Assembly (NCBI RefSeq): GCF_044324875.1
Contig: NZ_CP172185.1
DNA length: 64,000 bases
Source of the DNA: Escherichia coli
Lineage (GTDB): Bacteria > Pseudomonadota > Gammaproteobacteria > Enterobacterales > Enterobacteriaceae
Strand: one strand, 5' to 3'
Part shown: piece after piece, positions 13,286-54,203 of the stretch
Numbering within the stretch: position 1 is the first letter of the stretch
Layout: each line of letters opens with the position of its first letter
The notes under the pieces: model-generated
The model's database searches: none
Told to the model about the DNA's origin: nothing
The model's input: only the letters and a program-made list of their open reading frames with translations
Program-made: the position numbers and the translations under genes

Positions 13286-13311
13286 GCGAAGCAGCAGACA
13301 AGCGAAGCGCG

Positions 13312-14367
13312 TCAGGATATGGGCTGGGTGTCTAACAGTGCGTAAGGGTTAAAACGGATCACCTCTTCGCCCAGCCAGTCGTTGACGTGTTTCATTGCTT
13401 CCATGACGGGCATCAGTTCGTTAATGGCAAACACACGGGCTGCCTTCTCCACATCCCCGAATGACCCCTTCTCACCCGGCATGGCCCCCATCAGCTGCGG
13501 CGGTACACGGTGCACGGACAGCACATCATCACGCGATGCAGCCTTGACGTTCATGAACTCATCCTTTGCGGTGATTTGCTGAAACGGCAAAATCTGTACG
13601 CCATCCTTACCACCTCCCGCCGCGTGGATGAGCAGATTTTTAAACGCCCCGCCACCACGCGCGCTTTGCAGTGTTTCCCGCAGTTTTTCCATGCTTTCAC
13701 GGTCAACCTGCGCCGCACCGATGTAGACAATACAGCCCGCGTGTGAGCCGTTATCGTAGTAGAGCTTGCGGAAGATATCGGCGGAATGTGACAGGCTGGC
13801 AGACAGCAGGCCGCCCAGGTAATCCGGCATCCCGTAAATCTCCTGGTTGATATCAGGATTCATCAGGTGGCATATCGTCCCCTCACGAAAGCGGTACTCT
13901 TCCTGTCCTTCCTGTATATACCACCATGATTTCATATCGCTGCCACGTCGCATGTATTTCGCCAGCGCCCGGCGCAGGGCCAGCGGTTCGCCAAGCATGT
14001 TGCGCCGCAGCTCAAGACAGGCATTACCGAACACAAACCAGTCCATCGCCACCCCGGCGAACTCCTGGCGGGACAGCAGAGGATGTGGAATATAGCAGCC
14101 CAGCAGCACATTACGTTTGAAGCTGAGCGCCGACTGGTGCCAGGACGTCTGGCGGGCAGCCCGTGCCAGTCCGTACCAGTCAACGGGCGTTTCAAACCAC
14201 CGCCCGTTGTCGGCGCAGTACATGCTGTCCAGCAGGTCGGCCCCTGACAGCCGGTAAGGTCCTTCAAACGTGAAGGCACTCAGTGTCGGGTCGCTTCGCA
14301 GGGAATCCGCAAGGCTGCCCTGCGCTGCGCGGGCGTTCGTACGTCGTTGTTTATTTTTTCTGCTCAT
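13312..14367 (-). CDS. Q: Portal protein gpQ
   Basis: 351 aa; size, position and orientation as P2 Q, adjacent to terminase P. Confidence 0.85.
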   Translation of the reverse strand: MSRKNKQRRTNARAAQGSLADSLRSDPTLSAFTFEGPYRLSGADLLDSMYCADNGRWFETPVDWYGLARAARQTSWHQSALSFKRNVLLGCYIPHPLLSRQEFAGVAMDWFVFGNACLELRRNMLGEPLALRRALAKYMRRGSDMKSWWYIQEGQEEYRFREGTICHLMNPDINQEIYGMPDYLGGLLSASLSHSADIFRKLYYDNGSHAGCIVYIGAAQVDRESMEKLRETLQSARGGGAFKNLLIHAAGGGKDGVQILPFQQITAKDEFMNVKAASRDDVLSVHRVPPQLMGAMPGEKGSFGDVEKAARVFAINELMPVMEAMKHVNDWLGEEVIRFNPYALLDTQPIS

Positions 14368-16118: not shown

Positions 16119-16180
16119 TTCTCCCCCTCATGTGATTCAGGCAGTTTACTCACCCCTTACAGGCCTCCTGCCATGCCCGG

Positions 16181-16204
16181 TGTTGTCGGCATTCGCTTAC
16201 AACA
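16181..16204. promoter_or_regulatory. Ogr-type late-promoter dyad TGTTGT-N12-ACAACA between divergent P and O
   Basis: tgttgtcggcattcgcttacaaca. The TGT-N12-ACA element is the known P2 late activator site. Confidence 0.6.
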
Positions 16205-16272
16205 AACGCACTTTGTCTGTCCCTGCCCCGTTTTGCCATCATGAGACAAACGATCATCACGAGGGCCCGACA

Positions 16273-17109
16273 ATGCCTGAACAGAAAAAAACATCCCGTA
16301 AAACATTCCGCGTGGCCGTTTCCGGTCCCACCGCAGACGGTCGCGAAATCAGCGCCGCAGATTTGCGCGCGGCGGCCAGTAACTTCAACCCTGAGATTTA
16401 CGGCGCACGCGTGAACGTGGAGCACTGGCTTTCACCGGTTCCGTCCAGTGAATTTTCCGCCATGGGTGATGTGACGGCACTGAGCACAGAAGAAATCACC
16501 GAAGGTCCGCTGGTCGGTCGTACTGCGCTGTATGCGGAAATCGAACCCACCGACCGCATGAAAAATCTGGTCTCCCGGGGTAAGAAAATTTACTCCAGTA
16601 TTGAGCTGGCACGAAATTTCACCCCTACGGGCACCCCGTATCTTATTGGCCTTGCCATGACAGACACCCCGGCAAGCATCGGCACGGAGCGTCTTCAGTT
16701 CGCCCTGCAGCAGCGCCGTTCGGTCATGACCTTCAATAATCAGCAGACGGAAGCACCGATGTTCTCTGACGCCATTGAGGCTGAAGTGATCGAACTGACG
16801 GAGCGCCGCAGCGAGGAAGGTGCGCAGTGGTTTAACCGCGTGATGAACATGATTGGGCGAGGACGCAGGGCTGACGACACCCGGTTCTCCCGCATTCATG
16901 ACGCCGTTGAGGGGATAGCCTCATCGCATGCCGACCTTCTCGACCGCTTCAGTGCACTGGAATCGCGCCATCAGGCAGACAGACAGAAAGTCGCCACCCT
17001 GTCCACTGAGCTGGCAGAGCTGAAAAACAGACTGCGCGGACTGGACGCTGATCAGCAAAGTCGTTTTACGGCAACCGGCGGGCAGTCCAGACAACTGGCT
17101 GACTACTGA
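16273..17109 (+). CDS. O: Capsid scaffolding protein gpO
   Basis: 278 aa from ATG 16273. MPEQKKTSRKTFRVAVSGPTADGREISAADL parallels the P2 O N-terminus. Confidence 0.85.
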   Translation: MPEQKKTSRKTFRVAVSGPTADGREISAADLRAAASNFNPEIYGARVNVEHWLSPVPSSEFSAMGDVTALSTEEITEGPLVGRTALYAEIEPTDRMKNLVSRGKKIYSSIELARNFTPTGTPYLIGLAMTDTPASIGTERLQFALQQRRSVMTFNNQQTEAPMFSDAIEAEVIELTERRSEEGAQWFNRVMNMIGRGRRADDTRFSRIHDAVEGIASSHADLLDRFSALESRHQADRQKVATLSTELAELKNRLRGLDADQQSRFTATGGQSRQLADY

Positions 17110-17137
17110 CAGAAATAACCACAAGAGGTGATAACCG

Positions 17138-18277
17138 ATGAATCGGATCATGAGCGATGCCGCGCGGGCCGAGCTTTTTGCTTACCAGGCACAACAGGCG
17201 GAGATGAATAACATCACGATATCTGCGCTCTCCTCCCGCTTTTCGGTACAGCCGGCAGTGCAGCAGAGATTTGAAAACGCATCAAAGGAAAGCCATGATT
17301 TTCTTCAGAAAGCCAACAGCATTGGTGTGACAGAGCAGAAAGGTGAAAAGGTACTCCTGGACACCACCGGGCCGGTTGCGCGCACGAACAGCAGTTATGA
17401 CGGTACAAATCGTCGTAACCCGCTGAATGTGGTGGACATGAAAGCGCGACGCTATGAGTGCGAGCAGGTGAACTACGACACCTTCATCTCCTACCCTCAG
17501 CTTGACATGTGGGCCGGACACCCTGACTTCCAGCTGCGTGTGAGTCGCCAGATTGCCAGACAGGTGGCACTTGATCGCATCATGACAGGTTTTAACGGTA
17601 CGCACCATGCGGAAGTCTCGGATATAAAAAAACACCCGCGACTTGAGGACGTCAATAAGGGGTGGCTGCAGGATATCAGGGACCAGGCCCCGCAACGCGT
17701 CATGAAAGACGTGATGCTGACTGCGCGCAATATGGACAATTCGGTGGCATACACAGGCAGATACGCCAATCCCGATGCACTGGTCCAGGATGCACGCTCA
17801 TCCCTGCTTGACGAATGGCACAAGGACGCAGACGACCTCGTTGTCATCATGGGGCGAAACCTCTTTAACTCCCTGCGCCTGCCGGTCCTGAACAGTATCA
17901 GCATGCAGAATGCGAATGCCGAACTGCTTGCCGGACAGCTCATTGTGTCAACGCGGACCATTGGCGGCCTTGATGTGTACCTTGCGCCATTTTTCCCGGC
18001 TCAGTCAATGCTCATCACCTCATTCAGCAACCTGTCGGTTTACTGGCAGAAGGGGTCCATGCGTCGTCTCATGAAGGATGAGCCCGAATACAACCGTATC
18101 GCCATCTATCAGTCCGTTAACGACTGCTATGTGGTTGAGGACCATGGTAAGTGCGCACTGATTGAGAATATCAGCTTTGCCGAATATGACCATGACGCGC
18201 CGGACTGGTACCGGGACGCCACAAAAGCACTGTCAGCGCAGGCTGAAGACAGGGATGCAGGGGAAGAGGAGGATTAA
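17138..18277 (+). CDS. N: Major capsid protein gpN
   Basis: 379 aa, follows O as in P2. Confidence 0.85.
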   Translation: MNRIMSDAARAELFAYQAQQAEMNNITISALSSRFSVQPAVQQRFENASKESHDFLQKANSIGVTEQKGEKVLLDTTGPVARTNSSYDGTNRRNPLNVVDMKARRYECEQVNYDTFISYPQLDMWAGHPDFQLRVSRQIARQVALDRIMTGFNGTHHAEVSDIKKHPRLEDVNKGWLQDIRDQAPQRVMKDVMLTARNMDNSVAYTGRYANPDALVQDARSSLLDEWHKDADDLVVIMGRNLFNSLRLPVLNSISMQNANAELLAGQLIVSTRTIGGLDVYLAPFFPAQSMLITSFSNLSVYWQKGSMRRLMKDEPEYNRIAIYQSVNDCYVVEDHGKCALIENISFAEYDHDAPDWYRDATKALSAQAEDRDAGEEED

Positions 18278-18279
18278 CC

Positions 18280-19062
18280 ATGCTGACACCGGCACAGGCT
18301 CATTTCCAGCGCGTGATGGCTTTACGGGCAGGAACGGCAGCAGAAAACGAGGATATCGTGGCCCGCACGGCTCATGAGCAGGTCCTTCACCGTCTGCGCC
18401 TGGCACAGCAACGCATAAAGGGCGTCCAGGCAAAAGCGGCAAAGGCCGCGCTCAAGCGTGAAATGCTGCCGGGTTTTGCAGGCTGGATAGACGGCACGCT
18501 GGAAGCCGACGGCGGACAGCAGGATGAGGTGATAGCCACACTCATGGTGTGGGCCGTGGACTGTGGCGACCTGGCGCTTGCACTGCGCATCGGGGATTAT
18601 GTGGTTCGCCACAACCTCACGATGCCTGACAACTTCGGGCGTACGGCAGCCACGGTACTGACCGAGGAAATCTGCAACCCTGTTCTGACACAGGCCGGAA
18701 CGGATGCACACGCCGATTTGTCCGGCTACATCGAACCGCTGGACACCCTCTGGCAAATTGTCGCGAACCGGGACATGCCCGATGAGGTCCGCGCCAAGCT
18801 GTGCAAGGCATGCGCCTTTGCCCGTCGTGGCCTGACCGATGCCGACAGCATGGCGGTGAGTCTGAAGCTGTTCCGTGAGGCAATGCACCTTAACCCGAAT
18901 GCGGGGGTAAAACGTGAGATTGCCACGCTTTCACGGGCCCTGAAAAAGGCCGGACAGGATGAAGCCGCTGCCGCACAGGAGCCTGCGGCACAGAAAGATA
19001 CAACCAGAGAACAGACCACGACGCCGAAGGCGAAAGCGAAAGCGAAGGCGAAACGTGGTTAA
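18280..19062 (+). CDS. M: Terminase small/endonuclease subunit gpM
   Basis: 260 aa, position after N. Confidence 0.8.
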   Translation: MLTPAQAHFQRVMALRAGTAAENEDIVARTAHEQVLHRLRLAQQRIKGVQAKAAKAALKREMLPGFAGWIDGTLEADGGQQDEVIATLMVWAVDCGDLALALRIGDYVVRHNLTMPDNFGRTAATVLTEEICNPVLTQAGTDAHADLSGYIEPLDTLWQIVANRDMPDEVRAKLCKACAFARRGLTDADSMAVSLKLFREAMHLNPNAGVKREIATLSRALKKAGQDEAAAAQEPAAQKDTTREQTTTPKAKAKAKAKRG

Positions 19063-19164
19063 CGGCTGACCCCGTCAGAAGGCGGCGTGCCGGGCGTTCC
19101 GGTTACGGTTTTCCGTTCCCCTTACACCCGGCACCCACCGCTTTTTTTTCTGAAGGAGCGATTT

Positions 19165-19659
19165 ATGAGCATGGTCGCAAGACCGGAAGCCGCCCCTGCG
19201 CGGGACGACATCACCGACACCGACGACGGCGACGCCACCATCACCGCCGGGGCATTCTGGCCGGAGATTGTGCTGCGGGAGCTGCGCCTTGCAGTACGCC
19301 TGCCGGGCCGCATCACCTCCACACGTCTGGCGCACGTTGCCACGGGAGCCGTGGCTCACGTCACGCGGGAGCTGGAAGAGTGGCAGAAGGCGCAGTCTGC
19401 CGCAGGGTTCAGCATCCTCGCAGAAGTGCCTGCCGCCACCATCAACGGTGAGAGCGTCAACGTATGGCATTACCGCAACGCCGTCTACAGCGCCACCCGC
19501 GCCCTGATTCTGGAACGCTGGCGGGATGTGGACACCACTGATAAAGGGGACCGCCGGGCTGACGCACTGGATGAGCAGATGGAAGACTTATGGCGCGATG
19601 TGCGCTGGTCCGTGGCAGATATTCTGGGTCGCCCCCGTCTTTTTGCGGAGCTGGTGTGA
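19165..19659 (+). CDS. L: Head completion protein gpL
   Basis: 164 aa from ATG 19165. C-terminal DLWRDVRWSVADILGRPR matches P2 L ELWRDMRWAVARIQGKPR. Confidence 0.8.
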   Translation: MSMVARPEAAPARDDITDTDDGDATITAGAFWPEIVLRELRLAVRLPGRITSTRLAHVATGAVAHVTRELEEWQKAQSAAGFSILAEVPAATINGESVNVWHYRNAVYSATRALILERWRDVDTTDKGDRRADALDEQMEDLWRDVRWSVADILGRPRLFAELV

Positions 19660-19856
19660 TGAAAGTGAGGGCACTCCAGGGGGATACCGTCGATTTACTC
19701 TGTTTCCGGCACTACGGCACCACGCAGGGGGTGACCGCACAGGTACTTGATGCCAATCCAGGGCTCTGCCGCCAGGTAATTCTGGAAGCGGGACAGGAGG
19801 TGGAGATGCCGGAGCCGGAAAGGAAACAGCAACGCGAAAAGGTAAAGCTATGGTGA
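19659..19856 (+). CDS. X: Tail protein gpX (LysM-like)
   Basis: 65 aa. MKVRALQGDTVDLLCFRHYG...VLDANPGL parallels P2 X. TGATG overlap with L. Confidence 0.8.
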   Translation: MKVRALQGDTVDLLCFRHYGTTQGVTAQVLDANPGLCRQVILEAGQEVEMPEPERKQQREKVKLW

Positions 19857-20140
19857 CGGGATTTTTTCAGCGCGTCAGTGACTGGATCACCTTCTGGGCG
19901 TCAGTGACGGCAACAACCATTGGTGTTATGACCATCAGCGAAAAAATTGCGCTGGCCGGGCTGCTTCTGGGGTCACTTTCCGCCATCCATGCCTGGTGCC
20001 ACCGCAGGCGTACGGAGCAGGCAATGAAGCGCCGCAATGACCTTATCGCCCGCATCCTGGCACGTTCAGAAAACCGCGAGCTTCACGACGGTGAGAGACG
20101 GGCACTGGACAGCGTGAGACAGGACGGAGAAGAGCGGTGA
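19850..20140 (+). CDS. Holin (gpY position)
   Basis: 96 aa with hydrophobic helices and a charged C-terminus, upstream of the lysozyme gene. Confidence 0.65.
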   Translation: MVTGFFQRVSDWITFWASVTATTIGVMTISEKIALAGLLLGSLSAIHAWCHRRRTEQAMKRRNDLIARILARSENRELHDGERRALDSVRQDGEER

Positions 20141-20682
20141 AACTGCCGGTAAAACGTTATGCGGTGGCGGCCATTGTGGCGCTGGGCGTCTCCATGGCAC
20201 CCGGTGAACTGAGAACCTCACGGGAAGCACAGATAAAAATCGCCACCCGGGAAGAGTGCCGGGCGACACCGTACCGTGATATTGCAGGAGTAATGACCGT
20301 GGGATGTGGTTCAACAGGGGGCGTGGAGAACCGGGTTTACGGAGAAAAGGAGGTGGCCCGCCGCTGGGTGAATGACCTGCGGCACGCGGAAAACTGTATC
20401 AACCAGAACTTCAGCGGTGCCGCCATGCCCCAGTCCGCCTTTGAGGCGATGACCGACGCGGCGTTCAACGTCGGCTGTACCGGCCTGATGTGGTACCGGG
20501 ACAGGAGCGGCAACCGGCAGCGCACCACCATCTGGAAGCACGCACAGGCGCACCGCTGGGTGGCGATGTGCGGGAGACTGACCGATTTTGTCAACAGTGG
20601 CGGACGCCGCTCACAGGGGCTGGTTAACCGCCGGGAGGAGTTCAGACAGTGGTGTCTTCGCGACACGGGAGGCAGCACATGA
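20137..20682 (+). CDS. K: Endolysin, GH24 lysozyme with SAR-like N-terminal anchor (gpK)
   Basis: 181 aa, GTG start. E-x8-D-x5-T catalytic spacing in REECRATPYRDIAGVMT. N-terminal AVAAIVALGVSMA. Confidence 0.8.
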   Translation: MKLPVKRYAVAAIVALGVSMAPGELRTSREAQIKIATREECRATPYRDIAGVMTVGCGSTGGVENRVYGEKEVARRWVNDLRHAENCINQNFSGAAMPQSAFEAMTDAAFNVGCTGLMWYRDRSGNRQRTTIWKHAQAHRWVAMCGRLTDFVNSGGRRSQGLVNRREEFRQWCLRDTGGST

Positions 20683-21086
20683 GACCGGTTTACGCCGTGA
20701 TTGTTGCCCTCATGGTGACCACCCTGACGGCGGCGGCCATGTGGCAGTCATACCGGCTGGGGCGTGCCGGTGAGGCACGTGACGCCGCAGAGCAGCAGCT
20801 GGGCGAATACAGCCGGGCGCTGCGTGAGTCCTCCGCCGTTATCAGCGATGCCTCCGCCGTACTGCATGAGGTGATGACGCAGCGACAGAAAAGGGCACAG
20901 GAAGGAGAAGTCAGACGTGAACAGCTTCGCGAAATTGCTGCGACGGATGAGTGCGCCGGCACTCTTCCTGACCACCGTTTTACTGACCGGCTGCGCGAAC
21001 ACACGGAACGCGCCACTGCCCGCGCCCTCCTTCCGGTTCATTCCGGCGGGACTGACGACGGGAACACGGCCCCCGCCCTTCCCTGA
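20679..21086 (+). CDS. i-spanin (LysB/Rz-like)
   Basis: 135 aa from ATG 20679 (GGAGG RBS), N-terminal TM VYAVIVALMVTTLTAAAMW, coiled-coil periplasmic part. Confidence 0.7.
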   Translation: MRPVYAVIVALMVTTLTAAAMWQSYRLGRAGEARDAAEQQLGEYSRALRESSAVISDASAVLHEVMTQRQKRAQEGEVRREQLREIAATDECAGTLPDHRFTDRLREHTERATARALLPVHSGGTDDGNTAPALP

Positions 21087-21231
21087 ACACCCCACATGGG
21101 GAAATATCGGGATATGGAGCGACAGCCTCCTGGATGCACTGGAAACCTGCAACGCAGACAAACAGGCCATTGAGGCGCTGGAGCGCCGGAGACTCAACCG
21201 ACAGAACGGAGGGGGACATGCTGAAAAGTAA
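20917..21231 (+). CDS. o-spanin (LysC/Rz1-like lipoprotein), overlapping the i-spanin in another frame
   Basis: Lipobox LLTGC, Pro-rich mature part; start GTG 20917 or ATG 20947. Confidence 0.65.
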   Translation: MNSFAKLLRRMSAPALFLTTVLLTGCANTRNAPLPAPSFRFIPAGLTTGTRPPPFPEHPTWGNIGIWSDSLLDALETCNADKQAIEALERRRLNRQNGGGHAEK

Positions 21232-21682
21232 ATCCCTGAGCACACACATGAGTACAGCGTGCCGGTGGTGCAGGGCCAACCCGGAAAAGTTCACCGTGTT
21301 CATTGAACGTGGCGGGATAGAGACCACCGGCGAGACGCCGACGTTCGTGTACAACTACCGGCTGGTGATGTTCGTGATGGACTACACGGGCGATCTGGAC
21401 AACCTGACGCTTCCACTGATTGTCTGGCTGGCAGAGAACCAGCCGCAGTTGCTGCTTAATCCTGAGCGCAACAACGATATTCAGTTCACGGCGGCCATTA
21501 ACGACGACGACAGCGCGGACGTGCTGTTTGAGCTGCCGTTACGTGAACGCGTGCGCGTCACCCGCAGGGATGACGGCACCCTCATGACAGAACATCTACC
21601 GGAGCCGAAATCACGCATCCCGCAGGACGGCGACTGGTCACACATTCTGGAGGATGTGACGTGGAACATTGTCACCGGATAA
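21218..21682 (+). CDS. R: Tail completion protein gpR
   Basis: 154 aa from ATG 21218 (GGAGGGGG RBS); P2 R size and position. Confidence 0.7.
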   Translation: MLKSKSLSTHMSTACRWCRANPEKFTVFIERGGIETTGETPTFVYNYRLVMFVMDYTGDLDNLTLPLIVWLAENQPQLLLNPERNNDIQFTAAINDDDSADVLFELPLRERVRVTRRDDGTLMTEHLPEPKSRIPQDGDWSHILEDVTWNIVTG

Positions 21683-21697
21683 CACGCGGAGAATGTT

Positions 21698-22354
21698 ATG
21701 GGGAAACTGAGATACCGTAACCTCGTTCCCGCTGAAGGAATGAGTAACATGTTTGTCAATATCCGGCTGGCAACCAGCCCGCAGGCAGTGAAGCGCATTG
21801 CCGCGCATGTGGGTAAGGAGCTGCGGCGCGTGAACCAGAGCCGGATGCGCGCCCAGAAAGCGCCGGACGGTTCGGTGTGGACACGCCGTAAACGCCGTAT
21901 ATCACGCCTTCAGGAGCGCATCAGCTTTATCTGGCAAAACCAGAACCGCACCCTGAAAAACTGGCATCACGGTTCAGGAAAATACGGCCAGACCATCACC
22001 GGCTGGGATGAAGACCGGAGCGGCATACGTACCTTTTACCGGAGTGATATCCTCCGTTTCCTTGAAATCAGGACACGCCGCATCAACCGTGACACCACAA
22101 AAACGGTGCCGATGTTTGCGAAGCTGCGCACGGCCCGTTATCTGAAAGTGAAGGCGGACGCATCAGGCGTGACGGTGGGCTACAGCGGCGTGGCGGCACG
22201 CATTGCCCGCGTTCACCAGTTCGGGGAGCGCGACCGGGTGGCCGCAGGGATGTATACGGATTATCCGGCCCGTGAACTTCTTGGAATAACACCGGCAGAT
22301 GAACGACTTATTCAGCGTATCATTATGGACAATATCGCGAGGGCTGTGGCATGA
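21698..22354 (+). CDS. S: Tail completion / virion morphogenesis protein gpS (longer than P2 S)
   Basis: 218 aa, position between R and V. Confidence 0.65.
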   Translation: MGKLRYRNLVPAEGMSNMFVNIRLATSPQAVKRIAAHVGKELRRVNQSRMRAQKAPDGSVWTRRKRRISRLQERISFIWQNQNRTLKNWHHGSGKYGQTITGWDEDRSGIRTFYRSDILRFLEIRTRRINRDTTKTVPMFAKLRTARYLKVKADASGVTVGYSGVAARIARVHQFGERDRVAAGMYTDYPARELLGITPADERLIQRIIMDNIARAVA

Positions 22355-28154: not shown

Positions 28155-31100
28155 CTAATCTCTGTCACGGAAACTACCGACTGTCTGGCGGATACGGCGT
28201 TCCATTTCCGCACGGACGGCATCACCCACCATTTTTGCCAGTTCGCGCGGGTTTTGCGTGTGAACATCATGCAGGTGAATATGCAGTTCGCCAGTTAATC
28301 CCCATGGTGCCGGCTCACTCTGGCGCGGTCGGGGCGATGCGGGGGATATGGGCTGGCGCACAGCCTCAACCACCGGACGGGATGTTGCCGCCATCACTGG
28401 TGTCATTAGCGGGGAGAACGTCGGCATGACATCGTGAGTCATAACCGGTTTGATCACCGGCGGAACCACTGGCGTAATATTACCGGACAGTACCGGACGG
28501 ACGACCGGAGGAATAACCGGCACATTATTCACGGACACCACCGGCTTCACGACCGGCGACACGTTCGCCGTGGTGGATATCAGCGGCGAAACACTGACAG
28601 GCGGTGGCGCTGGCAGCGGTGGCAACGAAGGCACACTGACCGACGGCACCTGCGGCAGTCTGACAGGTGGCTCACTGACACTACCCGGTAACAGGGAAGC
28701 TGCTCGGTTAAAGCGTTCCTCCTTCCACTCACCACGAACGGCCAGCGCTTCCGGCAGGTTTTTAAAGATAATATCGCCGGGACCAGCGCGTTTTTTCGCC
28801 TGTTTCGCCTCATCCAGCAGACCACCGGTGTTATCGACGATTTTGTTCAGGCGGCGCATAGTGCCGGTATTCTCCCCCGTCAGGGGTGGTTGCCCCCCTT
28901 TGGGTTTTTCGCCGTCTTTTTTATCCTCGTCCTTTTTCGGCGGATTAATGACGTTAACATCCGCCAGAAGCATGGCAGCTTTCTCGTTCAGCAACTCCTT
29001 CTGTTTTAGTTCTTCCGCCTTTTTCCGGGCGCGCTCAACCGCCGACGGAATCAGCCCGAGTTTTTCCAGCACCCGGGTTAATGAGTCAATCAGCAGCGTA
29101 ACCGGACCGGTCACCAGATTGCTGATAAACTCCCCTACCTTCTGCCCGAACGTACGCCCGGCTTCCGTGCACTTGTCCAGCTCATCCTTTGTTGTGCTTA
29201 CCGGCGCGAACAAATCCACGAACCACTGCCACACACGCCCGATTGTCTGCCCGACATACTCAAACAGCGGTCCCAGTGGTGCCACAGCCTCGCGCAGTGG
29301 CGTAAGCCCCTGCCACAGGCCGGACAAGAACCCGCCCACGACAGCCTTCAGCTGGTCCCAGTGCCGCCAGATAAGCACTGCCGCACCGACCAGTGTCGCC
29401 ACCACAAGGCCCACCGGACTTAACAGAAAACCCAGCGCCCCGCCAAGTGCGCCCACCGCACCACTCACCATCCCCCACAGTGCGGGCAGACCTGACAGTC
29501 TGAGCGCCAGTATTCCGATACCGCGCCCCAGTGAAATCAGTGCGCCGCCAGGTGAAGTGAACGCAGCCAGCAGACCACCACGCAGCGCGCCAAGTCCCGC
29601 CTGCACACCACGAAGCCGCCCCGCAACTACGCCCAGCAGTGCAGCAAACCGTCCGGCACCGGAGGTGATACCGACAAACAGCACGCGCCAGCCACCGATA
29701 CCGCCCAGCGGACCACCGAGTACGCCGCGCAGCTGCGTCAGTAACGGCAGCGCACGACCGAGGCCGGATGTGCCGGTCAGCAGGGCAAACCCAAGACGCA
29801 GTTTTGCCAGCGGCCCCATCAACACACCAGTGGCAAGTGACAGCGCCCCCATGGCCGCAACCGCAGCCAGCAGTACACCACCGGCAATCAGCAGTTGTTT
29901 TGTCAGTTCAGGGTGCGCCTGAGCCAGCGCGGTGACTTTCGCAATAACCCGGGTGAACGACTGCGTGACAGAACGCAGCGGCCCGTCAACGAGGTCAGCG
30001 ACACGGATACGCAGTCCTTCCCATGCGCTGTTCAGTGATTTCAGGTCACCGTCCAGGTTATCAGCCATAACACGGGCAGTGTGATTAAGTTCCCCGGTGG
30101 CCAGTTCAATCTCCTGCGTAAGACGGGGAAGATTATTTTCCCCCGCCGCAGTGACAAGATTCATCAGGGAAACATAGGACTCCTGCCCGGCAATAGCCCT
30201 GAAAAAGGAGACCTGCGCGGCATTACCGTATTTTCGGGTGGCCTGGTACAGCTCATTCAGGATATTTTCCATCCGGCGCATGTTCCCGTAAGCATCCTGC
30301 GTCTCCACGCCAAGCTCTTTCAGTGCCATTGCAGCGGCCTTCGGCGGATCAACCAGACGTGACAGACTGGCACGCAGCGCCGTACCTGCATCACTTCCAC
30401 GGATCCCCACACTGCCAAGGACACCCGTCATGGCTGCCGCCTGTTCAAGGGACAGGCCAAGTGAAGCTGCAACCGGACCCGTGTACTTCATGGTTTCACC
30501 CAGTGAACGGAGATCCGTATTGGTTCGTGTGAAGGTGGCGGCCAGCGTGTCACCCACGCGATCCATCTGGTCAGCGGACAGACCAAACTGTGTGAGGATA
30601 TTCGAACTGATATCGGCAGTCTGTCCCAGGTCCATCCCTGCAGCCATTGCCAGATCAAGCACGCCGGGTAGCGCCGCCTGTATGGCCTGTGGTGTGAAGC
30701 CGGCCATGGCAAGGAACGCCTGACCGCTGGCAGCATCACCGGCGGTAAACTGCGTTTCAGAGCCCAGCTTAATGGCCTGTTCGCGCAGCGCCTTAAACTG
30801 CGGACTGTTTTTGTCAATACGGGTCAGCGCCTGGACGCGTGACATCTCCTTACCAAAACTGACCGCCGGTTGCAGGAAACGTCCGGCCGCATAGCCGCCT
30901 GCCGCCGCCGTACCAACCGCCGTAAGTCCGACCGTTTTAAGTTTTCCCGCCGTCTCCTGAGCACGGGAATATTGCTGGCGTGCCTGCGTGACACGTGCCA
31001 GCGCCTGCCGTTCGCGTTCCAGCTGGTCGTTGTATTGCTGTGTTCGCCGTATGGCCTGTTGAATGGTGTTGTCACTGCCGGAAAGCGCAATACCGTGGCG

Positions 31101-33928: not shown

Positions 33929-33992
33929 AAACAGCCATTCAACGCCGCTGCGGTGCATGAAACCATTACAGAACGCACCAGGAGAGAACACC

Positions 33993-35084
33993 ATGAAAGA
34001 GCTGTCAGTTACCGTTCCGTCACCGGATATCGACATCACCATCAACAACAACACACTGGCAAACCTCACAGAGCGACTCATGACGCTGACCCTGACGGAT
34101 AACCGGGCCTTTGAGGCAGACCGCGTCACCCTCACCCTTGACGATACGGACGGGCAGTTACAGTTGCCACCACGTGGCGCACGCCTGAGAGTGATGATTG
34201 GCTGGCGAGGAGAATCACTGGTTAACAAGGGCACCTACGTCGTTGATGAGGTTGCGTGGGAAGGACCTCCAGATAAACTGATCATCACCGCCAGCAGCGC
34301 AGATTTTCGGGAAGAGTTCAACGTGAGGCGGGAGGTATCCTGGCACGACGTGACCGTAAAACAGGTTGTGTCAGCCATCGCTCACCGCTACGGCCTGAAG
34401 ACACAGATAAGCGAAATCCTCATGGATATCGAAATTGACCACGCTGACCAGACCGAAGAGAGCGATATATCCTTCCTGACCCGCATGGCTGAAATGCTGG
34501 GTGCGATTGCCACCGTAAAAAACGGCAGCCTGTTATTCATTCTGCCGGGTGGCGGAACCGGGCCGGACGGAAAAGCCCTGCCTTCGTTCGCCATTACCCG
34601 CAGCAGCGGCGACAGTCACCGCTTTCGCATTGCTGACCGTGATGCGTATACGGGGGTCCGGGCGCACTGGCTCGATCTGAAGTTCGGGCACAAGAAAAAA
34701 GTGAACGTGAAGCGACGCAGGGAAGCCGGGAAACAGAAACAGGAGAAGAGCAGCAGCCGGGAGGGTGATTACATGGAAGGCGCGGAAGGGAACGTCTACG
34801 TTCTGCGCAGGACTTACCAGAATGAAGAAACCGCACGACGTGCAGCTGCGGCAAAGTGGCAGGAGTTACAGCGGGGAGCAGCGGCATTCTCCATCACTCT
34901 GGCACGGGGTCGTGCCGACCTGTATCCCGAAATGCACGGCAGGGTAACAGGTTTTAAAAGCGAGGTGGACAATCAGGACTGGATTATTGCCAGGGTGGAG
35001 CACATCATAGATGAAAGCGGCTTCACCACACAACTGGAGCTGGAAGCGAAAATCCCCGAATGGATAGCAGATTCAGGCGGATAA
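33993..35084 (+). CDS. D: Tail/late control protein gpD
   Basis: 363 aa from ATG 33993 (GGAGAG RBS). LTLTDNRAFEADRVTLTLDDTDGQLQLPPRGA matches the P2 D family pattern. Confidence 0.8.
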   Translation: MKELSVTVPSPDIDITINNNTLANLTERLMTLTLTDNRAFEADRVTLTLDDTDGQLQLPPRGARLRVMIGWRGESLVNKGTYVVDEVAWEGPPDKLIITASSADFREEFNVRREVSWHDVTVKQVVSAIAHRYGLKTQISEILMDIEIDHADQTEESDISFLTRMAEMLGAIATVKNGSLLFILPGGGTGPDGKALPSFAITRSSGDSHRFRIADRDAYTGVRAHWLDLKFGHKKKVNVKRRREAGKQKQEKSSSREGDYMEGAEGNVYVLRRTYQNEETARRAAAAKWQELQRGAAAFSITLARGRADLYPEMHGRVTGFKSEVDNQDWIIARVEHIIDESGFTTQLELEAKIPEWIADSGG

Positions 35085-35127: not shown

Positions 35128-35379
35128 ATGTTCCGTTGTCCCCTATGCGGTGCATCCGCACGTATCCGCACCAGTCGCAATGAAAATGATTCAGGCACAG
35201 TTCGCCTGAAGTACTACCAGTGCAATAACCTCGAATGCGGGATCGGCTTTACCACACTGGAGGGTTTTAACAAATTCACATCAAAACGCGCCCCGTCGCC
35301 GCAGGGTACAGAGCGGATACCGTGGGAAGATTTTCCGGGATCTCACAGGGGGAATGCTCAGATGAATCTTGATATTTAA
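35128..35379 (+). CDS. ogr: Late transcription activator Ogr (zinc finger)
   Basis: 83 aa. MFRCPLCGASARIRTSR...YYQCNNLECGIGFTTLE has the C-x2-C ... C-x4-C pattern, as in P2 Ogr. Confidence 0.85.
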   Translation: MFRCPLCGASARIRTSRNENDSGTVRLKYYQCNNLECGIGFTTLEGFNKFTSKRAPSPQGTERIPWEDFPGSHRGNAQMNLDI

Positions 35380-35428
35380 GAACAATAATCAGGTTGAGAG
35401 GACATCATAAGGCAAGTAGATTAACGGC

Positions 35429-35523
35429 AGATACTTTCCCGCAACCACGGGCAAGTATTTAATTATCCATGATGAAATATGACCTAAATTGTTTTTTGCC
35501 CGCCGGAAAGCGGGCATTTTTTT
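35429..35523 (+). ncRNA. sRNA-like unit a (phage-proximal): promoter TTGAGA-N17-TAGATT (35394-35422) to terminator T1
   Basis: Conserved hexamers at exact 17-nt spacing; GCCCGC-cggaaa-GCGGGC plus T7 at 35498-35523; no conserved ORF. Confidence 0.35.
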
Positions 35524-35737
35524 ATTCTTTTGTGGTTATGGGGTCATCAGGAACCACGTGCAGATTATATTTTTGTTTTTTTGGCGTTCCTCCGGCAGCA
35601 ACGAGTTCATCAATAAGACACTGACACGCCTGAACATCCCGGGCATGTCTTAGTTTCACCTTTATTGATTTAACCTTATCCTCACCGGAGGAGAAATGCA
35701 GTTCAATCTCAATATCGTTTCTTCGGAACAATCTCAT
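35522..35737 (-). CDS. Hypothetical 71-aa protein (module X, the only intact copy)
   Basis: ORF MRLFRRNDIEIELHFSSGEDKVKS.... Two decayed paralogous copies lie downstream. A palindromic operator lies upstream. Confidence 0.5.
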   Translation of the reverse strand: MRLFRRNDIEIELHFSSGEDKVKSIKVKLRHARDVQACQCLIDELVAAGGTPKKQKYNLHVVPDDPITTKE

Positions 35738-35832
35738 ACGCCCCCCTGAATATATCAGAAATGCTAGTATCGAAAAATGAGAAAACAGTTAGACAGGAGA
35801 AACATATTAACACAAATCATTTATACCTATAG

Positions 35833-35850
35833 ATGAAATTATAATTTCAT
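35833..35850. promoter_or_regulatory. Perfect 18-bp palindrome ATGAAATTATAATTTCAT upstream of the 71-aa gene
   Basis: Self-complementary. Related palindromes occur in copies 2 (TAGATGAAATTGCAGTTTCATCTA near 37000) and 3. Confidence 0.5.
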
Positions 35851-36093
35851 TCATGAATATGATAGATAACTATATTGTGAACAAAATGAAAAATGGCTAA
35901 ATTAAAAATGGGCATGGAGGAATGCCCGGTTATCAATATAATGTGACGTAGATCATTGTTTTGCCCGCCGGAGAGCGGGCATTTTTTTTGCGCCTGCCAT
36001 CGAGGCGCCTTCCCTGGCGCACACAAAGCAGCCCTGATTTTCCATGAAAACTTCAGGGTTGAGCTGCGGGCACAAAGTGAGTAGATTAGCTAC

Positions 36094-36189
36094 GGGTACC
36101 TCCCCCTGACAACAGGAAGGGTGTCCATTATCCATGATATACAAACGAAAAGTCTTGTTTTTTGCCCGCCGAAGCGCGGGCATTTTTTT
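36094..36189 (+). ncRNA. sRNA-like unit b: promoter TTGAGC-N17-TAGATT (36059-36087) to terminator T3
   Basis: Body contains CATTATCCATGATATACAAACGAAAAGTC; terminator at 36164-36189. Confidence 0.35.
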
Positions 36190-36234
36190 ATGCATCAGAC
36201 AAGATACAGCCCACCCCAACTGACACCTGAAATA

Positions 36235-36263
36235 TTGCCGCAACAAAAAGAAACAGTTAAATT
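36235..36263 (+). promoter_or_regulatory. hok mRNA promoter TTGCCG-N17-TAAATT
   Basis: Places +1 near 36270, the start of the GGGTGCCTT element that pairs with AAGGCACCC at 36613-36621 (fold-back). Confidence 0.5.
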
Positions 36264-36315
36264 ACGCGCGGGTGCCTTTCGGCTGATGGCCGGAGGGAAA
36301 ACCTGAAGGCCGGAT

Positions 36316-36549
36316 GTGGAAAGGCCCCGGAAAACATTTCTGTTTAACCGAGGCCCTAACCGCATTACCTTGACAAGTGAAAGGTTAGCGCCTCTCCGGA
36401 AAAGGAGCAAGTGCTATGTCGCAAAAATCGCTTACGGCCATCACGTTCTGCGTGACGGCAATCCTCATCATCTGGATATTGCACGGTTCGCTGTGCGAAA
36501 TACGGATGAGCTTCTGGGGAGCGGAGTTTGCGGCGTTCTTACAATGTAA
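36316..36549 (+). CDS. mok: mok-like overlapping leader frame
   Basis: 77-codon frame (GTG start) overlapping the hok frame, as in hok/mok/sok loci. Confidence 0.4.
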   Translation: MERPRKTFLFNRGPNRITLTSERLAPLRKRSKCYVAKIAYGHHVLRDGNPHHLDIARFAVRNTDELLGSGVCGVLTM

Positions 36550-36556
36550 GAAGTAA
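36416..36556 (+). CDS. hok: Hok/Gef-family type I toxin (46 aa), not in ORF track
   Basis: MSQKSLTAITFCVTAILIIWILHGSLCEIRMSFWGAEFAAFLQCKK. TM helix plus SLCEIR and AAFLxC motifs as in Hok/HokA. AAGGAG RBS. Confidence 0.8.
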   Translation: MSQKSLTAITFCVTAILIIWILHGSLCEIRMSFWGAEFAAFLQCKK

Positions 36557-36644
36557 GGAAACCGCGACGGGGGAGCAATCCCCCGTCAATCGGTTGCCAG
36601 GGTAAGGTCGATAAGGCACCCTATCTCACAGACATGAACAACAA

Positions 36645-36677
36645 ACCCGCAGCATAAAAACTGCGGGTTTTCTTTTT
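36645..36677 (+). terminator. Intrinsic terminator downstream of hok
   Basis: ACCCGCAG-cataaaaa-CTGCGGGT followed by TTTCTTTTT. Confidence 0.65.
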
Positions 36678-36808
36678 GGTGTCCTCACCGACTTGAAACA
36701 GTGATCAGACTATAAGACAAAGCCCGCAATGTTGCGGGCTTACTCTACCTCTCGAAAATGTGGTCACTGCGTGGACATACGCTGATACAAATCCTTTATA
36801 TCAATAAA

Positions 36809-36907
36809 TTAAATCTTTGTTTTTTTCATCAACAATGATTTAACCTTATCCTCACCGGAGGAGAAATGCAGTTCAATCTCAATATCGTTTCTGTGGAACA
36901 GCCTCAT
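36809..36907 (-). pseudogene. Truncated copy 2 of the 71-aa gene
   Basis: MRLFHRNDIEIELHFSSGEDKVKS, then divergence and a stop after 32 codons. Confidence 0.6.
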
Positions 36908-37265
36908 AAGACAACCTCCTGAATTCATCAGAAACACAGTCAACTGAAAACCAGAAAGCAGACAAACAGTGGACACACATTAATACAAATCATTTATACC
37001 TATAGATGAAATTGCAGTTTCATCTATAACATGACAGGTAACAATATTGTGAAAAAACTCAAAACTCGTTAGATTAAAGACGGACAGAGCAATGCTACTT
37101 TATCAATAACATGTAACCTGTACTTCCTTATTTTGCCCGCCGAAGCACGGGCATTTTTTTTGCGCCTGCCATCGAGGCGCCTTCCCTGGCGCACACAAAG
37201 CAGCCCTGATTTTCCATGAAAACTTCAGGGTTGAGCCAAAAGCACAAAGACAGTAGATTAACCAC

Positions 37266-37359
37266 GGGTGCCTTCCACCTGACAACAGGAAGGGTGTCCA
37301 GTATCAATGACAGACAACTCACATTGCTGTTTTGCCCGCCGGAAAGCGGGCATTTTTTT
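37266..37359 (+). ncRNA. sRNA-like unit c: promoter TTGAGC-N17-TAGATT (37231-37259) to terminator T5
   Basis: Hairpin CCTTCC-N11-GGAAGG; body CAGTATCAATGACAGACAACTCACATTGC; terminator at 37334-37359. Confidence 0.35.
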
Positions 37360-37563
37360 ATTCTTTTGTGGTTATTGGGTCATCAGGAACAACATGCAGA
37401 TTATGCTTTGATTTTTTTGGTGTTATTACAGCAGCAACGAGTTTATTAATAAGACACTGACATGCCTGAACATCCCTGACATATCATAATTTCACTTTAT
37501 TTTTTTAGCTTGTCCTTTCTGGAGCAGAAATATCTCAACATCGTTTCTGTGGAACAACCTCAT
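37358..37563 (-). pseudogene. Decayed copy 3 of the 71-aa gene
   Basis: Homologous over its length to 35522-35737 but with an internal deletion and stops (MRLFHRNDVEIFLLQKGQAKKIK*). Confidence 0.6.
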
Positions 37564-37914
37564 TTGCCCCTGAATGTATCATAAATATCAGCATCGGAAA
37601 ACCAACAGCAATACAGAAGAAACATGTTAATGCAAATCACTTATACCTATAGATGAAATTACAGTTTTGTTCATAAATATGATAAGTAACTATATTGTGA
37701 ATAAAATGAAAACTAGCTAAATTAAACGTGGGCATGGTGGAATGCCTCGTAATCAATAATACATGATCCGTACTTCCTTGTTTTGCCCGCCGGAAAGCGG
37801 GCATTTTTTTGGCGGTTACCATCGCCTCACCTTCCTGGTTCACATGAAGCAACCCTGATTTTCCATGAAAACTTCAGGGTTGAGACAAAAGCACAAAGAC
37901 AGTAGATTAACCAC

Positions 37915-38007
37915 GGGTACCTTCCACCTGACAACAGGAAGGCTGTCCAGTATCAATGACAGACAACTCACATTGCTGTTTTGCCCGCCGGAAAGCGGGC
38001 TTTTTTT
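37915..38007 (+). ncRNA. sRNA-like unit d: promoter TTGAGA-N17-TAGATT (37880-37908) to terminator T7
   Basis: Near-identical to unit c. Confidence 0.35.
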
Positions 38008-38111
38008 GGCAGTTATCATAGCCGCACCTTCCTGGCACATATGAAGCAACCCTGATTTTCCATGAAAACTTCAGGGTTGAGACAAAAGCACAAAAACAGT
38101 AGATTAACCAC

Positions 38112-38209
38112 GGGTGCCTGCCACCTGACAACAGGAAGGGGTGTCCATTATCCATGATATACAAACGAAAAGTCTTGTCTTTTGCCCGCCAAAGCGCGGG
38201 CATTTTTTT
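38112..38209 (+). ncRNA. sRNA-like unit e: promoter TTGAGA-N17-TAGATT (38077-38105) to terminator T8
   Basis: Near-identical to unit b. Confidence 0.35.
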
Positions 38210-38420
38210 ATGCATCAGACAAGATACAGCCCACCCCAACTGACACCTGAAATATTGCCGCAACAAAAAGAAACGGGTGCCTTTCGGCTGATGGCCGGAG
38301 GGAAAACCTGAAGGCCGGATGTGGAAAGGCCCCGGAAAACATCTGTGTTTAACCGAGGCCTGACCCTTCCTACCGTGACAAGTGGAAGGTTAGCGCCTCT
38401 TTGTAAAAGGAGCAAGCGCT

Positions 38421-38561
38421 ATACCGCAAAAAACGATTATTGTTGGCATTTTATGCCTGACAATAACCCTGGTCATCTGGATGGTCCACGATTCGTTATG
38501 TGAATTCAGCTTTGATATCTGGGGAGCGCGTTTTGCGGCGTTCTTGCAGTGTAAACCGTAA
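38421..38561 (+). pseudogene. Second hok-family frame with ATG replaced by ATA and the promoter -10 deleted
   Basis: IPQKTIIVGILCLTITLVIWMVHDSLCEFSFDIWGARFAAFLQCKP. A 15-nt deletion relative to copy 1 removes TAAATT. Confidence 0.6.
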
Positions 38562-38711
38562 GAAACCGCAGCGGGGGAGAAATTCCCCGCTATCCGGTTG
38601 TTGGGGTGGGCCGATATGGCGCCCTTTCCCTGTAGAGACAAAACAAAAAACCAGATTTGCCCGCCATTGAGAGGGCTTTTTTGTCACCCTCACCAGTGAG
38701 GGCATCATCAT

Positions 38712-38939
38712 TCAGAGGCGCGTAAGCCACCCGGCGTTAACATCCTGCCTGTCAACCCTGGCCGCAGAGTCTGAACGGCAGGTACCGGAAGGAGTACCAA
38801 AAACATCCCTGACAAGTTCCGCCACCTTCCCGATATCATCAGGTGTCACATTCCTCACCTCGGCCGTGATCCGTGGCGTACCATCATCGTTAACAAGAGT
38901 GGCTTTAAAGCTGGTGCGAAGGGAAAACAACATCAACAT
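38712..38939 (-). CDS. Hypothetical 75-aa protein
   Basis: ORF with GGGAGGGG RBS; no motif recognised. Confidence 0.4.
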   Translation of the reverse strand: MLMLFSLRTSFKATLVNDDGTPRITAEVRNVTPDDIGKVAELVRDVFGTPSGTCRSDSAARVDRQDVNAGWLTRL

Positions 38940-39137
38940 CCCCTCCCTTTGGTTCGTTGCACTGACGGCACGACACCATCAGGAAAAAGAAAAGCCCACA
39001 ACGTCAGTATTGTGGACTTTTTTCTTCAAAGATGGACATTATCTGGACACATGAAAATAAAATCCATTTATTTTCATATAGTTAAGTACCATGCAAAAGC
39101 GCCCGCAGGCGCTTTTTAGATTCAGAAAAATTGGGTA

Positions 39138-40451
<1,314 letters not shown>

Positions 40452-53808: not shown

Positions 53809-53896
53809 GGTGAGGTGTCCGAGTGGCTGAAGGAGCACGCCTGGAAAGTGTGTATACGGCAACGTATCGGGGGTTCGAATCCCCCCCTCACCGCCA
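53809..53896 (+). tRNA. serW: tRNA-Ser (GGA anticodon)
   Basis: 88 nt, GGTGAGGTGTCCGAGTGG...long variable arm...GGTTCGAATCCCCCCCTCACCGCCA; anticodon loop cuGGAaa. Confidence 0.95.
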
Positions 53897-53938: not shown

Positions 53939-54056
53939 GCATATTGCACTCCAGGGGGGATGAGAAGCCCCGACCGGGGTTCGACAACTGGCGCAGCCAG
54001 TTGGACAGACCACGAACACAGTGAGTGGGCTGCCCGCAGGGCGAGCGAAGCGAGTC

Positions 54057-54118
54057 AATCCCCCCTCACCGCCATATTTAAAGAAAAGCTCGTACGAAAG
54101 TACGAGTTTTTTTCGCAT
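54057..54118 (+). repeat. Degenerate second copy of the serW 3' end plus terminator
   Basis: AATCCCCCCTCACCGCCATATTTAAAGAAAAGCTCGTACGAAAGTACGAGTTTTTTTCGCAT versus 53878-53943, about 90 percent identical. Confidence 0.8.
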
Positions 54119-54203
54119 TTTATCTGCCTGTACGGCAGTGAACGGTATAAAAATCGAGTTTTTCTTTCGGTTGGCTTTCTAAGCTGCCTGTACGGCAGTG
54201 AAC
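54116..54203 (-). CRISPR. Orphan type I-F mini-array: 2 repeats, 1 spacer, no cas genes in window
   Basis: Minus strand GTTCACTGCCGTACAGGCAGCTTAGAAA (54203-54176), 32-nt spacer (54175-54144), degenerate terminal repeat GTTCACTGCCGTACAGGCAGATAAAATG (54143-54116). AT-rich leader-like sequence at 54204-54400. Confidence 0.8.

Follow-up and report, generated by a model that had tools for sequence, protein, structure and literature searches.

The DNA analyzed here is a 64-kb stretch of an Escherichia coli genome (contig NZ_CP172185.1), hereafter the window, in which positions 1 to ~39,100 form a P2-like, Xuanwuvirus-like prophage. Its subject is a cluster of eight short units, each of 113-134 nucleotides (nt) and each with its own promoter and terminator, that lie within 2.8 kb near the right end of the prophage and that we read as candidate small RNA (sRNA) genes. 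They are interspersed with two hok/sok loci (hok1 and the dead hok2) and with a short open reading frame (ORF), ORF71, and its decayed copies. The units and the symmetrical elements beside them are as follows, in the order of the DNA for the units:

35394-35523, plus strand: unit a, class 1; -35 TTGAGA at 35394, -10 TAGATT at 35417-35422, predicted +1 at ~35429; terminator stem 35497-35516, then T7
35875-35989, plus strand: unit f, class 2; TTGTGA-N17-TAAATT with -10 at 35898-35903; hairpin GGGCAUGGAGGAAUGCCC; terminator stem 35962-35981, then T8
36059-36189, plus strand: unit b, class 1; -10 at 36082-36087; terminator stem 36163-36182, then T7; abuts hok1 on its upstream side
37047-37161, plus strand: unit g, class 2; TTGTGA-N17-TAGATT with -10 at 37070-37075; terminator stem 37134-37153
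37231-37359, plus strand: unit c, class 1; -10 at 37254-37259, +1 at ~37266 (GGGUGCCUU); terminator stem 37333-37352, then T7
37695-37810, plus strand: unit h, class 2; TTGTGA-N17-TAAATT with -10 at 37718-37723; terminator stem 37784-37803, then T7
37880-38007, plus strand: unit d, class 1; -10 at 37903-37908; terminator stem 37983-38000, then T7
38077-38209, plus strand: unit e, class 1; -10 at 38100-38105; terminator stem 38183-38202, then T7; abuts the dead hok2 on its upstream side
36032-36058, 37204-37230, 37853-37879 and 38050-38076: 27-nt inverted repeat CCCTGATTTTC-CAT-GAAAACTTCAGGG
35833-35850: perfect 18-bp palindrome ATGAAATTATAATTTCAT, separating the promoter region of ORF71 from the class-2 promoter that diverges from it

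The class-1 promoter pattern, TTGAGM-N17-TAGATT, occurs at five sites (35394, 36059, 37231, 37880 and 38077), all on the plus strand and with no others in the 64 kb, where 0.01 matches would be expected by chance and where none of 100 shuffles reached five. A GCCCGCC-N6-GCGGGC hairpin followed by T7-8 is located 75-79 nt past each class-1 -10, just as an earlier, sequence-only reading of this DNA had described, and the three body classes which that reading quoted are exact. It had also presented the five as a tandem series of promoter-to-terminator units; the five repeats are real, but they are not arranged head to tail. Their start-to-start spacings are 665, 1172, 649 and 197 nt, only d and e being adjacent, and the same terminator is present in eight plus-strand copies, the three extra ones closing the class-2 units, so that the whole is an interleaved mosaic of eight.

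The three class-2 units have the promoter TTGTGA-N17-TA[AG]ATT and a shorter 5' hairpin, GGGCAU-GGAGGA-AUGCCC, and retain both the class-1 UAUCAAU motif just past the hairpin and the U-rich run before the terminator. When a covariance model is made from the class-1 units alone, it recovers class 2 at full length (E = 2e-8 to 3e-5, the match to unit f being at E = 2e-8), and the two classes therefore constitute one family. Unit g, which scores 28.8 bits with this model, has lost its 5' hairpin, has a fold z-score of -0.6 and is probably a decaying copy. Two modules recur along the cluster: a class-1 unit, an ORF71 copy in the opposite orientation and a class-2 unit; and a class-1 unit followed by hok in the same orientation. 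The 27-nt inverted repeat (four TTCATGGAAAAT matches) stands immediately next to the -35 in units b, c, d and e, though not in a, and in the lineage of a relative designated L002 both of its inner arms are one base longer (TTTTTC/GAAAAA), with the symmetry retained. The 18-bp palindrome, whose arms ATGAAA/TTTCAT are retained in copy 2 (37006-37023) and decayed in copy 3, looks by its sequence like a putative operator.

Promoters, folds and coding potential of the units

Each unit is built in the same way: a sigma-70 promoter is followed by a 5'-terminal stem-loop, an unpaired stretch of 30-40 nt and, at the 3' end, a U-rich run, a GC hairpin and U7-8. The RNAs predicted for class 1 are 92-97 nt long and consist of the 5' stem-loop, an unpaired middle and the terminator. 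The unpaired stretch opens with a common UAUC(A/C)AU motif and then diverges among the units.

Promoter conservation was assessed over 13 distinct variants drawn from the window and from nine related loci (four E. coli genomes together with metagenome and viral contigs). The 17-nt spacing is present in all 13, and mean pairwise identity is 85% in the -35 and 94% in the -10, compared with 56% in the spacer and 65% in the discriminator; the suggestion of the earlier reading that selection acts on these promoters is thus borne out, the hexamers and their spacing being kept while the spacer sequence varies. The -35 hexamers of the units, TTGAGA and TTGTGA, are nearer to the consensus than is the TTGCCG of hok.

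Units a to f each fold into a 5' stem-loop, an unpaired middle and a terminator, with z-scores of -2.1 to -3.6 for a to d. In a structure-aware alignment of 12 distinct units, itself fitted to the model, 96.5% of cells pair and both sides have changed in 7 of 19 pairs, six of these seven lying in the outer 5' stem. This level of pairing was unmatched in 500 shuffles and falls to 28-54% when the partner is slid by 1-3 columns. Covariation across homologous loci, which had been proposed as a check on the prediction, thus takes the form of compensatory changes in the conserved 5' hairpin. A fold kept despite sequence change is seen most plainly in unit a, whose sequence is the same in 11 loci: its hairpin, AGAUACUU-U-CCCG-CAACCA-CGGG-C-AAGUAUUU, and that of unit c, GGGUGCCUU-CCA-CCUG-ACAA-CAGG-A-AGGGUGUCC, have almost no sequence in common and share the same outer stem, an inner 4-bp stem and a CA-rich loop.

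On both strands, ORFs across the units vary from copy to copy in frame and length and run through the terminator; this inconsistency makes protein coding unlikely, as had been supposed. The neighboring protein genes have decayed (ORF71 copies 2 and 3, and hok2), whereas the units retain promoter and terminator. Several other identities were considered and rejected. A Sib/Ibs-type arrangement, which would place a conserved small hydrophobic ORF with its ribosome-binding site opposite the sRNA, does not fit, the minus-strand frames shifting or stopping between copies and the AUGs preceded by a ribosome-binding site giving just 3-5 codons, and leaderless mini-ORFs and opposite-strand toxins fail on the same inconsistency of frame between copies. 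A type III ToxI-like array would have head-to-tail repeats of ~34-36 nt behind one promoter and then an endoribonuclease toxin gene, whereas the units measure 113-134 nt, have individual promoters and terminators and are spaced by 197-1172 nt; scars of serial integration at the phage attachment (att) site were rejected because the att core is a different sequence and lies 900 bp distant.

The 3' ends bear on the kind of RNA that may be made. Every unit has UUUU directly 5' of a 7-bp GC-rich hairpin and an uninterrupted U7-8 tail, whereas the hok1 terminator has U4CU5, and the combination of a U-rich stretch, a hairpin and a long U tail is reportedly the Hfq-binding module of sRNAs. The predicted folds show the layout that the sequence-only reading had likened to Hfq-type sRNAs, namely a 5' hairpin, an unstructured middle and a U-tailed terminator. 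Because this terminator module is combined with a 30-40 nt unpaired stretch that varies among the units, Hfq-type base-pairing regulators are favored; both Hfq dependence and action in trans are what we infer from the layout only. Our preferred reading, for and against which we find the case evenly balanced, is that the cluster comprises eight paralogous sRNA genes, five of class 1 and three of class 2, which are carried as prophage cargo and most likely specify base-pairing sRNAs expressed in the lysogen. The units would be transcribed constitutively in the lysogen from their own sigma-70 promoters, the Hfq-type 3' module would point to regulation by base pairing, and the variable unpaired stretch would provide the seed.

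An Rfam search, another of the proposed checks, returned no Rfam 15 family at its gathering threshold between 35300 and 39200, and permissive E-values added nothing at threshold for the units. The best matches below threshold are to RyhB (24.4 bits, threshold 55), AgvB (23.2 bits, threshold 56) and rseX (26.1 bits, threshold 50), and these weak matches are largely due to the terminator.

Phage setting, distribution and ORF71

The cluster occupies the right end of the prophage, between the final conserved phage gene and the attachment core, among the following features:

Window start onward: int (cut at the window start), a C-like repressor gene, cox, a gpA-like replication gene (5541-8051) and structural genes
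33957-35084: D gene
35128-35379, plus strand: ogr/delta-type zinc-finger late activator gene, the final conserved phage gene ahead of the cluster
35522-35737, minus strand: ORF71, 71 amino acids (aa), WP_001236182.1, convergent with unit a
36809-36917, minus strand: ORF71 copy 2, decayed, a repeat at 86% identity with a truncated ORF
37360-37565, minus strand: ORF71 copy 3, decayed, a repeat at 88% identity with no open frame
38712-38939, minus strand: ORF75, 75 aa, between the dead hok2 and the att core, with no family match
39095-39109: att core AAAAGCGCCCGCAGG, 15 bp, inside the serS terminator, marking the right prophage end (attR)
Past the prophage: host genes serS, rarA, lolA and ftsK

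The P2-like context that had been recognized from the sequence is supported. The 15-mer AAAAGCGCCCGCAGG is repeated directly at the int end of a sister strain's prophage (L005 position 22096), and because it occurs both there and at window position 39095, 35380-39095 is phage DNA between ogr and attR. In the related prophages L004 and L007, the right end carries DNA ~89-91% identical to that at 38712-38939. Among sequenced phages, Xuanwuvirus P88 (Peduoviridae) represents the type closest to this prophage; its one hok/sok locus stands directly after ogr. Close relatives of the prophage are integrated at ihfA, zapB and copA and have similar cargo after ogr; the cluster is mobile cargo that moves with the phage among the chromosomal sites serS, ihfA, zapB and copA.

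This setting bears on the possibility that the units are insulators only, a stack of terminators that shields the essential serS gene and the att/int junction from late read-through and in which the promoters are incidental. Eight strong terminators do face serS (39138-40430), which is convergent with the cluster, and the att core is the serS terminator itself. A single terminator would suffice for this purpose, however, the cluster also occurs where the phage has integrated elsewhere, beside different neighbors, and the conserved promoters, the 17-nt spacing and the covarying 5' hairpins would be left unexplained; we consider a purely insulating role most improbable.

The units are rare. Of 5,426 complete E. 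coli genomes, 30 contain unit b together with its upstream element, in 2-8 positions each, and five metagenome contigs carry the same combination. BLAST searches with the units found none in 50,697 INPHARED phage records, where only hok matched, and none in 72,556 PLSDB plasmids, and the pattern, sought in 185,579 species at one genome each, was matched once, by chance, in a Firmicute metagenome-assembled genome. Searches of the literature found no comparable sRNA cluster in P2-like phages. The arrays that exist have eight, six or four units and are related via recombination between repeated modules. In the sister strain LH10-b-1 (NZ_CP100530), prophage segments 4143-21713 (17.5 kb) and 29658-30825 are deleted, the replication and head genes being gone and the tape-measure gene broken, and the full RNA/hok cluster is intact. 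Strains F11 and NRZ14408 likewise have the array.

ORF71, the protein-coding partner in one of the two recurring modules, is itself rare, with only 8 relatives among 1.8 billion representatives. Its C-terminal half matches phrog_14142, a PHROG with no assigned function; it has no Pfam match, neither it nor ORF75 matches a PADLOC model, and its AlphaFold2 model (predicted local distance difference test score, pLDDT, 76) has no Foldseek match in the PDB below E = 0.3. The surroundings of a 128-aa homologue, P0009, hold no similar RNA units. Antitoxins of type I that overlap the 3' end of their target gene pair with the 3' end of its mRNA, and the units might in the same way be cis-antisense regulators of the convergent ORF71, forming a ~95-bp duplex with the 3' end of its mRNA, with b, d and e as orphaned copies. 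In keeping with this, the module is found three times (a with ORF71 and f; a pseudo-copy with g and no class-1 unit; c with a pseudo-copy and h), the ORF71 stop abuts the unit a terminator with no minus-strand terminator predicted for ORF71 across 35522-35300, and decay of the protein partner while the RNA stays is what loss of a toxin with an orphan antitoxin would be expected to leave. ORF71 is, however, hydrophilic, matches no toxin or defense family and has no informative fold match, three of the five class-1 units adjoin no ORF71 copy, and the class-2 units are divergent from ORF71 and not antisense to it, so that we judge antisense control of ORF71 decidedly unlikely.

Three observations were made elsewhere in the window. 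In the early region of the prophage, isrK (60 bits, 4575-4650, plus strand) stands beside a C4 antisense RNA (80 bits, 4686-4773, plus strand), both above the Rfam gathering threshold, which constitutes a P1/P7-type RNA immunity element in a P2-like genome. Just past the gpA-like gene, a 332-aa ORF (8861-9859, minus strand) with the Walker A motif GPTGCGKS resembles the IstB helper of the IS21 family, and an insertion sequence may have inserted in the prophage. A lone type I-F CRISPR repeat (CRISPR-DR4, 50 bits) lies at 54176-54203 on the minus strand, beside a tRNA (53809-53893) and RtT (53940-54074).

Resemblance of the units to hok

The two hok/sok loci of the cluster each follow a class-1 unit:

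36235-36680, plus strand: hok1/sok; promoter TTGCCG-N17-TAAATT, mRNA +1 at 36270 (GGGUGCCUUU), hok ORF 36416-36556
36613-36621: fbi-like AAGGCACCC of hok1, whose own terminator is at 36643-36670
38230-38687, plus strand: dead hok2/sok; a 13-nt deletion removes the -10, the start codon is changed from ATG to ATA, and a unit-type terminator lies at 38659-38682

The hok1 ORF is the sole PF01848 match in the cluster. The Rfam sok model matches hok1 at 36270-36429 (46 bits, E = 2e-8, below gathering) and hok2 at 38275-38432 (48 bits), and it matches none of the eight units, which have no hok or mok ORF, no Sok gene and no Sok target region. In the relative integrated at ihfA (L002 7193-7793), a hicAB type II toxin-antitoxin system replaces hok after the last unit; the slot behind the RNA units therefore exchanges toxin modules.

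The resemblance between units and hok lies at the 5' end. The promoter of hok1 reads TTGCCG-N17-TAAATTA and that of P88 hok TTGCCG-N17-TAGATTA, with the mRNA starting six bases on at GGGUGCCUUU; units c and e read TTGAGM-N17-TAGATTA, with GGGUGCCUU six bases on. Over the promoter and the initial ~25 nt, units c, d and e can be aligned to hok1 and P88 hok with both the -10 elements and the +1 positions in register, at local alignment scores of 32-37.5 against a shuffle mean of 18 (standard deviation 3; p <= 0.003, 300 shuffles), and BLAST against a 67-kb database gives E = 0.007 for c and e with P88 and E = 0.06 for c with hok1. For class-2 promoters the alignment with that of hok1 has p <= 0.01, and any resemblance of class 2 or of unit a to hok is confined to the promoter part. 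Units c, d and e thus have a promoter, a +1 and a 5'-terminal (tac) hairpin of the hok type, with modest support. The statement of the sequence-only reading that the units could be placed in no known family stands insofar as no Rfam family reaches threshold, and has to be amended insofar as the promoter and first ~25 nt resemble hok, with the same modest statistics.

Comparison with hok/sok of the hokW-like type (P88 and Stx phages), which in P88 occupies the same slot after ogr, therefore shows a shared TTGNNN-N17-TA[AG]ATTA promoter, a 6-nt interval, the start GGGUGCCUU and a similar 5'-terminal hairpin. The two differ in the length of the transcript, ~400 nt for hok and a predicted ~95 nt for the units, and in the terminator, which in the units is of another type with a longer U tail. 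A "mini-hok" in which the body would be the hok 3' untranslated region (UTR) and the interior would be deleted was rejected, the similarity of the body to the hok 3' UTR not being significant. To judge from these alignments, it is somewhat probable that the class-1 units descend from a hok cassette of which the promoter, the +1 and the 5' hairpin were kept, while the ~350-nt toxin core would have been exchanged for a short new body.

The main and serious rival to our preferred reading holds that they are non-functional stubs of hok/sok morons, in which the toxin core was deleted and which were multiplied by unequal recombination within decaying cargo. The hok-like promoter and 5' leader are what such stubs would show, their surroundings are decaying (hok2 and two ORF71 copies are dead), unit g is degenerate, copy number varies between 4, 6 and 8 via recombination, and much of the identity between copies reflects recent duplication; the target searches described below were also without result. 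Loss of the toxin from hok loci is said to be common in E. coli chromosomes. Three points speak for function instead: the most diverged pairs (a versus b-e, and class 1 versus class 2) retain both hexamers, the exact 17-nt spacing, a 5' helix that stays paired although both of its sides have changed, and an uninterrupted U7-8; hok2, of similar age, has lost its -10 and its start codon; and the -35 of the units is better than that of hok. We regard decayed stubs as unlikely, though more deserving of attention than any other rival.

Alternatively, the class-1 RNAs, bearing the hok "tac" 5' end GGGUGCCUU, might disturb tac-fbi pairing, the long-range contact by which hok mRNA is held inert or activated, and so tune or neutralize hok1 or the hok of competitors. 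Units c and e do start with the exact tac of hok1 and P88, hok1 bears the complementary AAGGCACCC near its 3' end, and b and e lie directly upstream of hok copies. The tac-like arm is locked, however, in the predicted hairpin of the unit RNA itself, units a, f, g and h begin differently, neither hok1 mRNA nor the Sok region is complementary to any unit body, and the mechanism is without precedent. Such interference with hok folding appears very unlikely to us and belongs, with the purely insulating role, to the less likely explanations.

Targets, significance and comparison with known systems

If the units encode base-pairing sRNAs, their unpaired stretches would be expected to act on other RNAs. 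The sequence-only reading had proposed that a unit motif is antisense to the start-codon context AUCAUGGAUAAU; this was not supported, there being no gene in the window with a counterpart at its start, and the complement of the motif shared by the units is likewise absent from the gene starts. When every unpaired stretch was scanned for duplexes with either strand of the window, a single pairing stood out, that of unit f with gpA mRNA at 6627-6666 (plus strand), with 19 + 9 contiguous pairs, many of them G-U, at ~ -35 kcal/mol.

Two further leads come from matches in the sense orientation, which are individually improbable and were found post hoc, so that we treat them as leads and not as findings. 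Units c and d (37318-37328 and 37967-37977) hold CUCACAUUGCU, an exact 11-nt sense match to nt 45-55 of RyhB, its pairing region, and units b and e (36144-36153 and 38164-38173) hold AACGAAAAGU, 10 nt identical to nt 15-24 in the 5' part of GcvB. The RyhB-like stretch of c and d is alignable also to the hok leader AACAUUUCUGU and may derive from there instead. With GcvB, the units have antisense matches of 8 nt only, and there is no demonstrated complementarity to GcvB or FnrS. RyhB itself (RF00057), the best of the weak Rfam matches, differs from the units, which score 24.4 bits against its gathering threshold of 55 and at whose promoters no Fur box was identified. A more far-reaching reading joins these leads to descent from hok: the hok promoter and leader would have been turned into an sRNA scaffold, multiplied to eight and diversified in the unpaired stretches, one of them with a RyhB core, to yield lysogen regulators that reprogram the host or disarm killing by rival hok loci. 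We put this forward as a speculative and quite unlikely extension.

Several observations weigh against our preferred reading of eight sRNA genes and against the descent from hok that we attach to it. No credible target emerged from the prophage, the flanking host DNA, the phage collection or sodB: the pairing of unit f with gpA beats 40 of 40 shuffles only narrowly, and the variant of the unit in related phages has a different body; no unit has long complementarity to any sequenced phage; and unit c lands on the RyhB site of sodB no better than shuffles do. Diversity is low, with 12-13 distinct sequences, many parts of which have been homogenized by recent duplication or recombination, and conservation therefore partly reflects youth and not selection. 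The covariation was read from a 12-unit alignment fitted to the model, and unit g is without the 5' hairpin altogether. The homology to hok extends over ~40 nt at 70-72% identity, and the unit bodies have no significant similarity to the hok 3' UTRs. Finally, among the hok loci of 5,426 E. coli genomes, hok2 alone has this distal 3' end and a unit-type terminator. The terminator may therefore have been copied onto hok2 from the units, but its presence on hok2 is unique to the cluster and transfer in either direction is possible.

If the RNAs are made and active, the units would be a new, uncatalogued family of prophage regulators of unusual density, with eight genes in 2.8 kb, and the natural variants with four, six and eight units would be suited to studies of gene dosage and of seed diversification. 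Descent from hok, if true, would provide a concrete example of new sRNA genes arising on mobile elements, and the scaffold reading, if true, a documented route from a toxin mRNA to the birth and radiation of sRNA genes. Should the units instead be relics, they would give a clear picture of hok cassette decay and recombination in prophage cargo.

Among prophage RNAs, close parallels to the units include the anti-sRNAs AgvB and AsxR of enterohemorrhagic E. coli, which are prophage-encoded and bind Hfq (Tree et al., 2014; PMC4104026). They resemble the units in that both are short RNAs of prophages, contain a CA-rich element and end in closely similar terminators (GCCCG...CGGGCAUUUUUU). AgvB is also the second-best of the weak Rfam matches, at 23 bits against a gathering threshold of 56, so that the units are not members of that family, and AgvB and AsxR reside in lambdoid prophages whereas the units reside in a P2-like one. 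PasA-D of enteropathogenic E. coli prophages are Hfq-associated, multi-copy variant sRNAs restricted to Escherichia (Zhu, Shabalina and Storz, 2026; doi 10.64898/2026.05.13.724894); they are present in 1,362 genomes, the Pas genes lie in lambdoid late regions with copies at least 22 kb apart, and that study attributes their origin to repeated acquisition and not to local duplication (doi 10.64898/2026.05.13.724894). Like the units, the Pas RNAs are accessory, prophage-borne and multi-copy with variants, and have a 3' terminator with a poly-U tail. The units are instead clustered in 2.8 kb of a P2-like prophage and occur in ~30 of 5,426 E. coli genomes, and in this context and distribution they differ from Pas.

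The organization of the cluster can be compared with that of OmrA/OmrB in E. coli, PrrF1/PrrF2 in Pseudomonas and LhrC1-5 in Listeria, in which neighboring paralogous sRNA genes each have their own promoter and terminator and in which the ends are conserved and the middle is divergent. Those families are chromosomal regulators of the core genome with known regulons, whereas the unit cluster is mobile cargo, made up of two subfamilies that are interleaved with toxin and ORF modules.

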